The notes: generated from the letters alone by a model not told the origin. 40,000 nt of DNA from Myxacorys californica WJT36-NPBG1 (GCA_019359315.1 JAHHHO010000021.1:18078-58077); one strand, 5' to 3'. Positions 33,185 through 37,027 are shown, counted from the stretch's first letter. Translations and numbers: made by a program.

Positions 33185-36100
33185 TTAGCCATCGATCAAG
33201 TCTGCAAGCGTATCCCAAGCATCTTTCTCGCGGCAGGTCATCATTTGCACAAACTTCTCTGGAGTGCCAGCTAGGTGAAGAATCGTGAGCATCGCTAGCC
33301 TGTTCTCGCTGGTCTGAGCGCCACCACCATGGATCGTGTCAGCCGCTGCAATCAAAGCTTTGGCTTGTGGATAGTAGAAATTGACCGCAGGCTTGACTTT
33401 CAAAGTAATGAACTTGAGGGCAGAGTAAGCTGTGATTAACAAACCAAAGGGAGTCACCTTAAAAGCCGTTTTGACAGCGTTCCAATCGATGGAGTTAATT
33501 GATGTATCGATCGCCGCTATGACCCTATCAGTCGTAGGAAGTTTGAGTTTCTTTTCCCCGTATTCCTTGAGCCGATAGAGACCAAGCTGTTTTTTCATCA
33601 TCTTGGGAAATTCGATCGTTGCCTGCCATGGAGTCAGGACATTAGCCCCAAAAGTAACCATAGTACCGCTATAACCCAAGATCGAATACCCAATTAAGCC
33701 TGCATTAATCAATTTATTAATGACTGCGCTCAGCCCAGACCAAACTCCCATAGTCGCTAAGGTTGGAATTGCGCCCTTCACCGTAGCAAACTTCTCCTTA
33801 AACCATTCAGACCAAGGCTTCTCGCCTGTCTGCCGACCCATGTGTTTGATCAGGTCAATCAGTGGCTGGAGTTGTTGATCGAGTAGGGCAAGTTCGGGGT
33901 AACTGCTGGTATCAATGTCAGTAGAAGCAGCAGATGGAACTTCAATGGTGAGTACCATACCGCGCTCTGAGTTCTTGTCGGTTGCCAATTTTTTGAGGAC
34001 AACCTCTGATTTCTGGGTAAATGTCTTAAATCGATCGCGAACGGCGGCAGCATCTAGGGAGATTCCCTGCTCTGCATGGGCTAAACTGCTAACCGCACTG
34101 AGCATATCGTTAAACAAGGAATGGGTTTCGTCGCCTAATATGTCCCATGCCACAGATAGTAATGTGGTTGCTCCAGTTTGATGAGCCAATGCTTTTAAAG
34201 CTTCGTCAAAGTTCAAATATCCCAGAAAATCTCTATATTGAGGAATACCCCATGCGCCGTACTTACTCTCAAATGCAAGACGACCCTTCAGGAGATCGTT
34301 AAATGTTTTGGCATTGAAGTCTGGTTCCAGGGGAATTTCCTCATTTTTGACAGCCGCATTCACTGCGAGCGCAAAAGTTGTCAATCGTCCACGAATGGCG
34401 GCTTCATCCAAAACCACTCCCTTTCTTGCCCTCGCCAAAGTGTCTGTTGCAGCTTCGATTTTGGTCATTTGGATTTTGGTCAACTGTGGAGTCGGCGTTT
34501 GCTCGTGTAAGATGTCCCAGGCTGTAGAAAGTTGGGAGAGAGCGCCACTATCTTTGGCTAACTCTGACAGTTTCCGGTTAGACGATAACTGACTTAAAAA
34601 GAACTTCAATTGAATCTGCCAATCTAAATTCTCAGACTTAAGTCGGGTTTCGAGCATGGCATTAAAATCTGATTCCAAGGACAAGGAATCTGCAAAATAG
34701 GCTCCTCGATCGCTTGCGAGCTGCTCCTCCAGATTCAAGGCAGCATACATTTCTGAATCAGGAAAATCAGATATTCCCTCATCCACTGATTGAGTTTTGC
34801 TCTGTTTAGGTGGGGTCCAAACCGGGATGCAACTTCCTTCGCCTTGAGCACTGGGCATAAACAAAATCTGCATTCCAATACAGGTCACATCGCCATTGAT
34901 CGCTGCATCAATGGGGTAAGTTCCATTTTTGTTAGGGTTGAAGTCTTTTCGTCCTGCAAAATACTGGAAGAGCGCATCAAAATGCTGTTCAGTCCAGGCA
35001 TCGGGGAAGAACGTAGACGCATCTTTTTTCTCTTTTTGGGTTTCTTTGTGCTGAATTTTTTGCTGATAAACTCCACATTGATCGGTTACAGTTGGTTTAC
35101 CAATTCGTTGGAATTTCGCATCTCCTGTTTCGTACCCCGTCCAGTGATAGCCCGTCAATGCCATGGGATCAGCCTTGGTACCACCGATGCTGATATGGTG
35201 CCAATACCGTTCCTTGAGATTTTGGGCGGTCACTTTAGGCGCAGAGGCTTTTTGCCAAAGTGTCTCGACTGCTGTACTGATATTGGGATCATCAGTTGTA
35301 GGGCTATATTTCTTGCCATACCGCTTCTTTGCTTCGCTCTTTAAGCGGGTTAAATACTTGCTTTTTAGCTCATTGGGATTGGGTGGAACATTCTCAAGTA
35401 GAGTGCTAATGTCGTTTTCCTCTAGTTGAAATTGCATGGCTGGTTGCCAAAGTTGGTCAACACTGAGCGCGGCAACATCTGCCGCTAATTCATCCTCATT
35501 CCACTCTAAGGGTTGGCCGATCGCAGGTGCTATAGGAGTGTCTTCCTCGGCATCGTAGCCGAATGAGGATGCTTTTTCCTCCTCATCTAAAACAGCATCG
35601 AATTCATCAAAGGTTTGCTCCAGGGAAAAAGTGCCCAGGTCAAACGCCGTGGCGTGAGCCATGCTCCTGCCCATCTGGTCAAACACATCATGAGCACTGG
35701 GCAGTTTCGGGGGTAAGGATTGTGCCTGGGACGGAGGCGCGTTGTCTTTCGGGGCAGGTCCTGGGGGAGCGGATCGCTCAGTTGGAGGAGCAGGCGTTGT
35801 CTCTGCTGGTTCGTAGGTTTTCTCACCCCGTAAGATGGCAGCAACATCGGCAGCAAAGGTCTCAGCATCAGCGGACTGGGAAGTCTCGGCCATGCTATGC
35901 CCCAAGGCATCAAGTTCCAGGGCATCAAAATCGATCGCTGCTGCTTGCTCGAAATCGATCGCTGCTGCCGACTTTTGCGGTGAATGAGTGGGATTCACCA
36001 CCGTGGCTTGCACTGGAATTGCCTCAGAAGCGGGATCGGGCTGACTATGGGAAATTAGAACATCTTCGTCATCGTGATCCAGGTCATTGGTGTGACTGGT

Positions 36101-37027
36101 TTCAGCAGGCTCTTTTACAGAGTCCTCCATCTCGTCCACGACATCAAATCCAGAGGAATCTGTCACAGGTTGGGCTACCGGATGAAGTGCTGCATCATCT
36201 TCAGTCTTCAGCCCAGAGGCATTACTGTCAGAGTTGATCGTCTCCTTCGGTATCGTTTCCGATTCTGTCTCCGCCTCAAATGCCCCAGCTTGCTCGGTGG
36301 GTATTTCCTCATCCTCAACGGCAAACGCTTCCACTGTGAAGGTTAGCGGTTTATCTCCCAAACCCAGACCATAGCTATCTTCGTCAGTAGGCAACCACTC
36401 AAATGACTCCGCTGGGGGGTGCTCTGCCCCCTCATATTCCAGAGAAATAGCTTCATCCCAATCAAATGCATGCGCCTCAGATTGGGCAGAGGATTCGGGA
36501 TCGCCTTCATATTCCAGCGCGATCGCTTCATTCCAGTCAAAGGCATGAGACTCGATCTCAGGGTGCTCTGGCTGCTCTGGTTCAGCATCCTCTACTGAAA
36601 ATGGCTGGACGGTGGGTGCGATCGGGGGGATACCGTAAACGCTCTGCTCTAGCGCAAACAGGGAATTGGAGTGAGACAGGGGGTCATTAACTGGGGGAGC
36701 TTCTTCCTCTACCGAAAACGCCTGTACGTCATAGACTGGAACCTCGTTATCCTCTAGGCCAAACTCCTGGCTGCGATCCTCATCTTCCTCCCAGTTCACG
36801 GCTTTAGCCTCAGGGCTTTCCTCATCCTCATAGGCCAGTTCGATCGCCTCATCCCAATCGAAGGCACGAGCTTCCATCTGGTCGTTCTGGGGGATTTCAG
36901 AGGCTTCGGGTTTCTCAACTGAAGATTCTTGAGATGGCTCGCTGACGGTGGTGTTCCCATGCAGACTTTGCTCAAGAGCTAGGAGGGAATTGGGATTGTA
37001 GCCGTTGAAGATTGACATAGTAACCAC
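33185..37027 (-). CDS. 1280-aa multidomain protein: N-terminal 'LLALEQSL' motif, long acidic repeat region, internal EndoU-like RNase domain, duplicated helical module, C-terminal TM helices
   Basis: Likely start ATG at 37018 ('MSIFNGYNPNSLLALEQSLHG'). There are three 'AFDW(D/N)EAI.LEYEG' repeats. The EndoU-like segment spans aa ~605-738 (nt 34814-35215): 'WHHISIGG...LTGYHWTGYE...QCGVYQQKI......KDASTFFPDAWTEQHFDALFQYF...TCIGMQI'. Hydrophobic helices span aa ~1085-1132 and 1190-1208 (nt 33404-33775). Confidence 0.6.
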   Translation of the reverse strand: MVTMSIFNGYNPNSLLALEQSLHGNTTVSEPSQESSVEKPEASEIPQNDQMEARAFDWDEAIELAYEDEESPEAKAVNWEEDEDRSQEFGLEDNEVPVYDVQAFSVEEEAPPVNDPLSHSNSLFALEQSVYGIPPIAPTVQPFSVEDAEPEQPEHPEIESHAFDWNEAIALEYEGDPESSAQSEAHAFDWDEAISLEYEGAEHPPAESFEWLPTDEDSYGLGLGDKPLTFTVEAFAVEDEEIPTEQAGAFEAETESETIPKETINSDSNASGLKTEDDAALHPVAQPVTDSSGFDVVDEMEDSVKEPAETSHTNDLDHDDEDVLISHSQPDPASEAIPVQATVVNPTHSPQKSAAAIDFEQAAAIDFDALELDALGHSMAETSQSADAETFAADVAAILRGEKTYEPAETTPAPPTERSAPPGPAPKDNAPPSQAQSLPPKLPSAHDVFDQMGRSMAHATAFDLGTFSLEQTFDEFDAVLDEEEKASSFGYDAEEDTPIAPAIGQPLEWNEDELAADVAALSVDQLWQPAMQFQLEENDISTLLENVPPNPNELKSKYLTRLKSEAKKRYGKKYSPTTDDPNISTAVETLWQKASAPKVTAQNLKERYWHHISIGGTKADPMALTGYHWTGYETGDAKFQRIGKPTVTDQCGVYQQKIQHKETQKEKKDASTFFPDAWTEQHFDALFQYFAGRKDFNPNKNGTYPIDAAINGDVTCIGMQILFMPSAQGEGSCIPVWTPPKQSKTQSVDEGISDFPDSEMYAALNLEEQLASDRGAYFADSLSLESDFNAMLETRLKSENLDWQIQLKFFLSQLSSNRKLSELAKDSGALSQLSTAWDILHEQTPTPQLTKIQMTKIEAATDTLARARKGVVLDEAAIRGRLTTFALAVNAAVKNEEIPLEPDFNAKTFNDLLKGRLAFESKYGAWGIPQYRDFLGYLNFDEALKALAHQTGATTLLSVAWDILGDETHSLFNDMLSAVSSLAHAEQGISLDAAAVRDRFKTFTQKSEVVLKKLATDKNSERGMVLTIEVPSAASTDIDTSSYPELALLDQQLQPLIDLIKHMGRQTGEKPWSEWFKEKFATVKGAIPTLATMGVWSGLSAVINKLINAGLIGYSILGYSGTMVTFGANVLTPWQATIEFPKMMKKQLGLYRLKEYGEKKLKLPTTDRVIAAIDTSINSIDWNAVKTAFKVTPFGLLITAYSALKFITLKVKPAVNFYYPQAKALIAAADTIHGGGAQTSENRLAMLTILHLAGTPEKFVQMMTCREKDAWDTLADLIDG

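Follow-up and report, generated by a model that had tools for sequence, protein, structure and literature searches.

Polymorphic toxin systems join a conserved N-terminus to recombining C-terminal cassettes (Zhang et al. 2012, PMC3482391), and bacterial EndoU toxins (PF14436, Tox-EndoU, e.g., CdiA) are likewise large modular proteins. MARTX-type toxins carry unrelated effector modules on one chain, and a further group of modules, which act in defence, places a dedicated serine protease beside latent toxic proteins (Pepco/Trypco1-2, EACC1, and protease-activated metallo-beta-lactamase modules; Kaur et al. 2020, PMC7159879; Evans et al. 2025, 10.1101/2025.11.14.688446). The locus described here has features of each. 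It lies in a 40,000-nt stretch (the window, from the start of which all positions are numbered) of the metagenome-assembled genome (MAG) of Myxacorys californica WJT36-NPBG1, order Leptolyngbyales, and its central gene encodes a modular two-payload effector of polymorphic-toxin-like build, composed of a leader, an EndoU cassette, and a helical cassette. Taken by itself the EndoU domain is an ordinary new member of a known family; the architecture of the protein and the operon around it are a new variation on the modular, polymorphic effector theme.

The effector resembles polymorphic toxins in its conserved N-terminus and recombining C-terminal cassettes, at least one of which also exists as a stand-alone protein. 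In contrast to those systems, the leader is acidic, motif-bearing, probably disordered, and without a Pfam family; no recognized secretion route or immunity gene accompanies it; and payloads can be joined in tandem. The profile match, the conserved residues, and the large modular toxin-like host protein are shared with bacterial EndoU toxins, but in the window the EndoU domain lies away from the C-terminal tip, is not preceded by an RHS, filamentous haemagglutinin, LXG, PAAR, or PVC metallopeptidase region, and is not followed by an immunity gene, and some of its close relatives (P0003, P0101, and P0008) have lost a catalytic His. The strain-variable set of unrelated effector modules on one chain, for which proteolytic release is plausible, recalls MARTX-type toxins; here, however, RTX repeats and an internal cysteine protease domain are lacking, the protein is much smaller, and the protease that may release the modules is a distinct S8 enzyme.

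The effector gene is the sole long open reading frame (ORF) at its site (see the table below for coordinates of all features). Both an ORF scan and the public gene calls place it on the minus strand where an earlier note on this DNA had put it; the length of 1280 aa is counted from a GTG start, and the public calls begin at an ATG at position 37018, three codons later, giving 1277 aa.

EndoU_bacteria (PF14436) is the only Pfam match within the protein (aa 614-712; 27.4 bits, E = 5e-6, profile positions 10-110 of 129). The score clears the curated gathering cutoff of 25.3 bits by a thin margin, and independent support was therefore sought. When aa 590-1280 served as query against 1.8 billion representative proteins, 18 proteins besides close relatives matched through the EndoU region only (E = 1.7e-11 to 6e-4); nine of the ten that were scanned are EndoU_bacteria members themselves (27-52 bits). 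The characteristic motifs are WHHIS (aa 609-613), GYHW (626-629), KKDASTFFP (667-675), and CIPVW (733-737), and in an alignment with 14 independent EndoU proteins all of the key residues fall in conserved columns: His611 in the 'W..HI..GE' column, His628 in the 'GYHW' column, Lys667 with Ser671/Thr672 in K..STFFPD.W, and Ser732 just before I-P. The catalytic Lys of EndoU enzymes is known from XendoU and Nsp15. The Tox-EndoU signature consists of H, H, [SNT], and [SNT] (PMC3482391).

By sequence criteria, aa 595-745 is a genuine EndoU_bacteria domain, with an apparently intact and competent-looking His-His-Lys-Ser/Thr active site and a predicted RNase activity that would be uridine-specific and leave a 2',3'-cyclic phosphate. 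The earlier note had placed an EndoU-like stretch at aa ~605-738 and had made its reading depend on a Pfam profile match and on the catalytic His and Lys residues; the match exceeds the cutoff, and His611, His628, and Lys667 are all in place after proper alignment. Prediction of the fold, which in this family is of the BECR-type alpha+beta kind, was less informative: an AlphaFold2 model of aa 590-1280 built from a 10-sequence alignment had a mean predicted local distance difference test score of 51 (50-77 in the EndoU region), and PDB sequence searches with the whole protein and with the EndoU profile gave nothing useful. Five of seven EndoU-bearing relatives reach the Pfam cutoff, the others being P0008 (21.7 bits) and P0101 (20.6 bits). 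A catalytic residue has been lost in three of eight EndoU-bearing family members: P0003 and P0101 have WTRIC/WLRIC for WHHIS and V for S in STFFP, and P0008 has GYYW in place of GYHW. These three domains may be inactive or changed in function.

The 20 homologs of the window protein are all cyanobacterial or metagenomic. Every one aligns to the N-terminal leader and diverges after about aa 485-620, so that on the BLAST map the leader, not the C-terminus, is the family-defining part. At least seven payload types occur on this one leader: EndoU (P0003-6 and P0008), Ntox11 (about 100 bits; P0015-17 and P0019), a DXD glycosyltransferase (Gly_transf_sug; P0009 and P0010), a metallo-beta-lactamase (Lactamase_B; P0012), and a weak MLD-like domain (P0018) are recognizable, and several members have no domain match after the leader. 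The combination of a conserved N-terminus and variable C-terminal toxin domains, by which polymorphic toxins are defined, is thus found among the homologs. No known trafficking domain and no linked type II, V, VI, or VII secretion system (T2SS, T5SS, T6SS, and T7SS), PVC, TcdB/TcaC, PrsW, or MuF component was detected in the leader or the core genes with Pfam, NCBIfam, or PHROG.

Comparison of individual members accounts for the internal position of the EndoU domain, which the earlier note had considered atypical. P0003 and P0008 consist of the leader and EndoU alone, P0004-6 of the leader, EndoU, and other modules, and P0002 (Nostoc CCY 9925) of the leader and the C-terminal module of the window protein without EndoU. 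The domain is indeed internal, because a second cassette follows it; this is cassette joining rather than a special design.

The second cassette comprises two copies of a ~110-aa helical module, which the earlier note had described and which are 38% identical (aa 785-899 and 906-1020; pairwise E = 3e-17), and a C-terminal helical domain. Motifs of the C-terminal module (GRQTG..SW.EWF, TFG.N.LTPW, LYRL.EYG, and IDW.AV..AFKVTPFGL) recur in ~15 homologs; the module is found in stand-alone proteins of 340-541 aa (P0021-24 and P0098-P0110) and fused to the leader without EndoU (P0002 and P0103). Pfam has no match to it in the window protein or in nine homologs, the colicin pore domain included, and its resemblance to colicin pore domains, in being helical and burying a hydrophobic hairpin, is an analogy only. 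Hydrophobic segments do lie where two to three transmembrane helices had been predicted (nt 33404-33775), namely at aa 1085-1125 (nt 33653-33775) and 1189-1212 (nt 33392-33463), but their Kyte-Doolittle maxima of 1.35-1.45 are below the 1.6 usual for transmembrane helices, and the description 'membrane-anchored' is therefore not established. Half of the first segment is deleted in four homologs. The module, being mobile, appears to be a second payload, possibly membrane-active, instead of the dedicated anchor proposed before. Two of the stand-alone C-terminal modules sit in arrays with Lipase_3 and phospholipase-D (PLD) proteins. On metagenome contigs L017 and L018, stand-alone modules alternate with Lipase_3, PLD, and PASTA-domain proteins; these PASTA proteins have a 213-aa N-terminus that is 90% identical and C-termini that differ, and so form another polymorphic family.

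The leader of 560 aa is probably disordered, and its motifs are short, sharply conserved, and embedded in variable acidic sequence. The NSL(F/L)ALEQS motif, present twice, occurs in 16 of 20 family members and in the neighboring 291-aa and 171-aa proteins; the AFDW(D/N)EAIxLEY form has three copies in the window leader. Additional motifs are AFDWDEAIALEY, ILRGEKTYEP, ADVAAILRGEKTYEP, and HDVFDQMGRSMAHATAFDLGTFSLEQTFDEFD. The pattern [LIVMF]xL[EQ][QY] is found five times in the leader against 0.09 expected, and none of 5000 shuffled sequences reached five. A longer motif, IFDxMGxxMxxATxFDLG...LEQ.FDEFD, has a wider distribution: its IFDxMG...FDLG part is shared with distant effectors, and the marker stretch that contains it is the only one in common with the distant proteobacterial and metagenome effectors of L019 (804 aa, Amidase_2), L020 (676 aa), and L021 (533 and 425 aa). 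In form the leader motifs look like cleavage or docking sites, and the (M/I)Y(A/T)AL-type motifs that recur after the EndoU domain in the alignment of EndoU-bearing homologs are candidate processing sites.

The effector gene is roughly the tenth gene of an operon that is present in all related loci that could be read (L001-L016 and L019-L026), with constant gene order. One or two copies of an S8 peptidase are followed by a protein with PG_binding_1 and coiled-coil regions, A2 (about 600 aa, helical), A3 (about 350 aa), A1 (about 750 aa), a 'variable' protein whose conservation between loci is confined to roughly its final 60 aa, a small protein, the 255-aa protein, an acidic leader-motif protein, the toxin, further leader-motif proteins, and finally an SLH/beta-helix or tail-fibre-like protein with a common N-terminal adaptor. 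The S8 protease heads the operon in all 14 related loci with readable upstream DNA. Identity between Leptolyngbyales and Nostocales is 59-63% for A1 and 75-76% for the 255-aa protein. We found no description of this operon in the literature.

A1 belongs to a family of 73 members, all annotated 'hypothetical' and none with a Pfam domain; it has three transmembrane-like helices, and an AlphaFold2 model from 69 sequences shows confident N- and C-terminal beta domains. The top structural matches of this model, aerolysin-like lamprey LIP and Dln1, had TM-scores of 0.2 or less and are not to be trusted. PDB profile searches with A1, A2, and A3 (three to four sequences) and with A3 and A2 (nine sequences) gave nothing useful. 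The peptidoglycan (PG)-binding protein matches endolysin and tape-measure families in PHROGs and NCBIfam through its PG_binding and coiled-coil parts; A1 has no relatives in IMG/VR, and A2, A3, and the 255-aa protein have none in 50,697 phage genomes.

Members of the 255-aa family share an N-terminal amphipathic helix and beta unit that ends at an invariant Ile82, and then a charged proline-rich linker; in the window protein an HhH-like stretch follows, and the C-terminus is TIG-like, with a weak Pfam TIG match. The Ile82 and charged linker resemble the published description of the Pepco cleavage site (10.1101/2025.11.14.688446), and the Burkholderia member, alone in the family, matches Trypco2 at 16.6 bits, below the cutoff of 24.2. 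The 265-aa window protein has no match to Pepco or Trypco in Pfam at E values up to 1, and the family profile finds in the PDB only weak matches resembling the C-terminal domain of RNA polymerase alpha (E about 0.06). From these sequence features the 255-aa protein may be Pepco/Trypco2-like. The idea that the small and 255-aa proteins are homologous was discarded (hhalign probability 0.35%).

The six-gene core (S8, A2, A3, A1, the small protein, and the 255-aa protein) is kept in a proteobacterial MAG, a divergent metagenome locus, Okeania, and Leptothoe, and in rearranged form on a Burkholderia pyrrocinia megaplasmid. Strains from culture collections that carry the operon include Calothrix PCC 7716, Dulcicalothrix desertica PCC 7102, Nostoc CCY 9925, and, with a truncated operon, Tolypothrix PCC 7601/7712. 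The distant loci have large effectors, in which Amidase_2, lysozyme, C70, or C92 domains occur, and some loci are flanked by housekeeping rather than defence genes. On the Burkholderia megaplasmid (pBPJTT, 396708-421355), genes for a sigma-54-dependent regulator, a DUF3467 protein, and an Amidase_2 + C92 + C70 protein of 1254 aa are followed by the small and 255-aa genes, which here precede the S8 peptidase, and by four additional genes of unknown kind. On a plasmid of Tolypothrix sp. PCC 7712, as in PCC 7601 and Microchaete NIES-3275, an IS701 transposase lies immediately after the 255-aa gene; effector genes are missing in plasmids of this type because the transposase cuts the operon. Small genes of the 23S_rRNA_IVP family (four-helix bundle) are found inside the operon in two loci (L022:8766-8972 and L021:16599-16940).

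No obvious immunity gene follows the effector gene, as the earlier note had remarked, and no small ORF near it stands out as a candidate. The note had put forward the acidic 171-aa protein encoded downstream. This protein carries three copies of leader-type motifs, and its N-terminus matches those of proteins of 433-522 aa that occupy the corresponding position where the payload is a different one; the C-termini of these relatives are unrelated, and they also follow Ntox11 toxins. It appears to be a further leader-tagged protein and is not a plausible immunity protein. A 368-aa protein adjoins stand-alone C-terminal modules and, in Nostoc CCY 9925, forms a fused part of the 'variable' operon protein; it was rejected as immunity protein for the module, since the window has the module without the 368-aa protein and Calothrix PCC 7716 has the reverse. 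The 'variable' protein was rejected as EndoU immunity protein, its N-terminal parts being unrelated among three EndoU-bearing loci.

The last gene of the cluster encodes a protein of 615 aa in which an adaptor-like motif at the N-terminus (DNWALLQSFF / DNWDVLESMF) is combined with 14-aa tandem repeats and one central hydrophobic helix. Its N-terminus is common to proteins at the same position elsewhere that have tail-fibre-like or SLH C-termini, and this pattern, an N-terminus that is conserved and a C-terminus that varies between SLH and tail-fibre-like forms, resembles, by analogy, that of receptor-binding proteins. The 14-aa unit (e.g., AITAAKSDIATVKD) is present in about 20 tandem copies, and on the opposite strand this repeat creates two long ORFs (31326-32096 and 31393-32079) that are spurious.

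We tentatively interpret the window protein as a leader-tagged, probably protease-processed, two-payload effector of a system that has not been described, and rate this slightly below an even chance. The effector would be made in the cytoplasm as a latent pro-form, with the leader coupling it to the operon core and keeping it latent. The S8 protease would dock at or cut the Phi-x-L-E-Q and Phi-A-L-E motifs and the linkers between modules, including the YAAL-type linker after EndoU. The freed payloads would act on foreign cells, whether of bacterial competitors or of eukaryotic grazers, EndoU cutting RNA at uridines and the C-terminal module acting on the membrane or aiding passage through it. 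The route would not be a known secretion system and might involve protease-gated pore formation or lysis. A multi-protein system made up of the six-gene core and cargo marked by IFDxMGxxMxxATxFDLG, with payloads released by such pore formation or lysis, is a guarded proposal that we do not hold as firmly as an even bet. The S8 protease of this core is cytoplasmic, the core is found in many cyanobacteria and sporadically in Proteobacteria, and the cargo would comprise RNase, Ntox11, glycosyltransferase, metallo-beta-lactamase, and PG hydrolases. That the targets are other organisms is held with modest confidence, just short of balance, because of the payload repertoire, the receptor-binding-like last gene, the polymorphic-toxin pattern, and the loci flanked by housekeeping genes. 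For Ntox11, PVC-type delivery is the only kind that has been listed, with no immunity proteins (PMC3482391), and a Legionella Dot/Icm effector contains a domain similar to it (PMC11696984). The arrays in which stand-alone C-terminal modules accompany Lipase_3 and PLD proteins are a further hint.

Several observations weigh against this interpretation of the effector as one sent into other organisms. Cleavage at the leader motifs is purely inferred, and on this contig the readable DNA ends inside the third core gene, so that the S8 gene itself is not seen. The core proteins have no signal peptides, and no ATPase, secretion-system, phage-tail, or capsid component was found among them with Pfam, PHROGs, NCBIfam, or the PDB; export is therefore putative. 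A Foldseek search of PDB and BFVD with the A1 model found only generic beta-sandwich matches, and one of PDB with the poor model of aa 590-1280 found no match with E below 0.1. No immunity gene was found beside an RNase that could harm its producer. Finally, a self-killing defence system would account equally well for a protease together with a Pepco-like protein.

Such a system, protease-gated abortive infection, is the main alternative, which we consider unlikely, though it merits attention: infection would activate S8, which would cleave latent death effectors in the same cell. Among these would be the small and 255-aa proteins as Pepco-like pore formers, and the enzymes that bear the leader, in the window EndoU with a membrane-active module. 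The leader would then be an inhibitory pro-region, and because of this acidic inhibitor no immunity protein would be needed. The first position of S8 in all 14 loci, the absence of signal peptides and immunity genes, and the weak Trypco2 match with the invariant Ile82 and linker similar to the Pepco cleavage site (10.1101/2025.11.14.688446) agree with this, as do the PG hydrolases without signal peptides in proteobacterial versions and the metallo-beta-lactamase payload of P0012; a clade of metallo-beta-lactamase effectors is associated with S8 proteases and activated by cleavage (10.1101/2025.11.14.688446). The window is itself a defence island, L004 and L019 have AAA_15/OLD-type neighbors, and the system is enriched in filamentous cyanobacteria, like the conflict systems of PMC7159879. 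The same enrichment, the Pepco-like sequence logic of the 255-aa protein, and an associated peptidoglycan-binding protein link the operon to the known protease-effector defence modules, from which it differs in its stand-alone S8, unfused to STAND, Avs, or another sensor, in its three additional large conserved unknown proteins, in its polymorphic effectors of 700-1300 aa with a common leader, and in a Pepco homology below threshold. Indeed the core genes include no recognizable sensor (STAND, Avs, or other NTPase), the sub-threshold Trypco2 match is confined to one distant member, and the small and 255-aa proteins are unrelated by hhalign; payloads of the Ntox11, DXD glycosyltransferase, and MLD-like kinds typify toxins that are delivered into foreign organisms, the SLH/tail-fibre-like last gene would have no obvious role, and several loci lie among housekeeping genes. 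The regulated or processed toxin envisaged in the earlier note is thus a live option, given S8 as the first gene in 14 loci and the leader motifs; its abortive-infection form is possible, and is not the best-supported one.

Cargo of extracellular contractile injection systems (eCIS) is recognized through a long disordered N-terminal region. The window effector might be cargo of an eCIS/PVC-like or thylakoid-anchored contractile injection system encoded elsewhere in the genome, the leader serving as a packing signal and the neighboring genes as loading or accessory factors. The Ntox11, EndoU, and glycosyltransferase payloads, the disordered N-terminal signal region, the lack of immunity genes, and the reported restriction of Ntox11 to PVC-type delivery recall such cargo; nevertheless this is improbable, as no contractile-tail gene is linked in any locus (genes for sheath, tube, baseplate, spike, and AAA+ proteins are all absent from the 10 kb flanking each side in ~20 loci), the six-gene core always accompanies the effectors, on plasmids and in Proteobacteria included, and phage and viral collections gave no match. 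More improbable still is a membrane-tethered RNase with a permanent C-terminal transmembrane anchor and the 171-aa protein as immunity factor. The two hydrophobic segments and the acidic protein directly downstream would suit it, but hydropathy falls under the usual transmembrane threshold, half of the first segment is missing in several homologs, the C-terminal module exists without EndoU and as a stand-alone protein, and EndoU occurs without the module in P0003 and P0008; the 171-aa protein has leader motifs, and its relatives have unrelated C-termini and also follow Ntox11 toxins.

The left two-thirds of the window (5631-24817) looks like a Dpd-type 7-deazaguanine DNA-modification and restriction island. 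A Tn7-like TnsD/TniQ gene lies just downstream of the SLH gene with an insertion-sequence transposase between them, and in Nostoc CCY 9925 a TnsA-like gene (L002:15962-17506) directly follows the homologous SLH gene; the 3' side of the operon may therefore be a preferred attachment site of a Tn7-like element carrying the defence island. The tRNA and Rfam scans of the window were empty.

Table. Features of the effector gene, of the operon, and of the remainder of the window
Feature	Position (nt)	Strand	Remarks
Whole effector gene	33185..37027	-	1280 aa from GTG start; sole long ORF at site
Acidic leader, aa 1-560	35348..37027	-	BLAST map of homologs; isoelectric point 4.05, net charge -111
LLALEQS, aa 15-21	36965..36985	-	NSL(F/L)ALEQS motif, copy 1
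LFALEQS, aa 123-129	36641-36661	-	NSL(F/L)ALEQS motif, copy 2
Three AFDW(D/N)EAIxLxY motifs, aa 55-66, 162-173, 187-198	36434..36865	-
Marker motif HDVFDQMGRSMAHATAFDLGTFSLEQTFDEFDAVLD, aa 446-481	35585..35692	-	BLAST against L019, L020, and L021 effectors
EndoU RNase domain, aa 595-745	34793..35245	-	Pfam, indirect EndoU-only matches, alignment; codons checked
His611	35195-35197	-	EndoU key residue; codon checked
His628	35144-35146	-	EndoU key residue; codon checked
Lys667	35027-35029	-	EndoU key residue; codon checked
Ser671/Thr672	35012-35017	-	EndoU key residues; codons checked
Ser732	34832-34834	-	EndoU key residue; codon checked
Acidic inter-module linker with EMYAAL, aa 738-790	34658..34816	-	Alignment of EndoU-bearing homologs
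Helical module copy 1, aa 785-899	34331..34675	-	Internal repeat
Helical module copy 2, aa 906-1020	33968..34312	-	Stand-alone homologs start aligning here
C-terminal helical domain, aa 1041-1280	33188..33907	-	~15 homologs with common motifs
'Variable' protein (312 aa in full), 3' part	39325..40000	-	Start outside window, about 40263
Small core protein, 173 aa	38820..39341	-	86-131 aa elsewhere; overlaps both neighbors by about 10 nt
255-family core protein, 265 aa	38033..38830	-	40-88% identical across all loci, Proteobacteria included
291-aa acidic protein	37122..37997	-	N-terminal RLFDLEQSL; 195-325-aa homologs at same position in every cyanobacterial locus
171-aa acidic protein	32563..33078	-	Three leader-type motifs
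615-aa protein	30450..32297	-	Last cluster gene; Pfam: beta-helix, three SLH domains
IS4/IS5-type transposase (DUF4096 + DDE_Tnp_1)	29474-30232		Between SLH and Tn7-like genes
Tn7-like TnsD/TniQ gene	25813-27762		Plus two unannotated ORFs (region 25813-28962); just downstream of SLH gene
Short QueC-like ORF	24269-24817
TGT-family protein with DUF6884	21467-23554
TGT-family protein	20494-21498
UvrD-type helicase	16105-18339
DndB-like protein	14980-16074
UvrD-type helicase	12303-14582
PD-(D/E)XK nuclease	11276-12361
1662-aa DEAD/Helicase_C protein	6154-11142
PLD-like protein	5631-6182
735-aa TPR protein	3427-5634		Left end
ISL3 transposase	1176-2837		Near left end
M78/IrrE-like peptidase ORF	11-706		Left end

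The operon is uncharacterized: its 6 to 10 core proteins are all without a relative in Pfam, NCBIfam, PHROG, or the PDB, and highly variable toxic payloads always accompany it. The leader motifs are searchable and would allow effectors to be listed across genomes, much as the MIX, FIX, and LXG markers serve T6SS and T7SS. If the proposed interpretation is true, the system would be a new class of toxin-delivery or cell-death machine: either a new route of toxin export or lysis in cyanobacteria, a group whose conflicts with other organisms are little understood, or a large suicide system gated by a protease.

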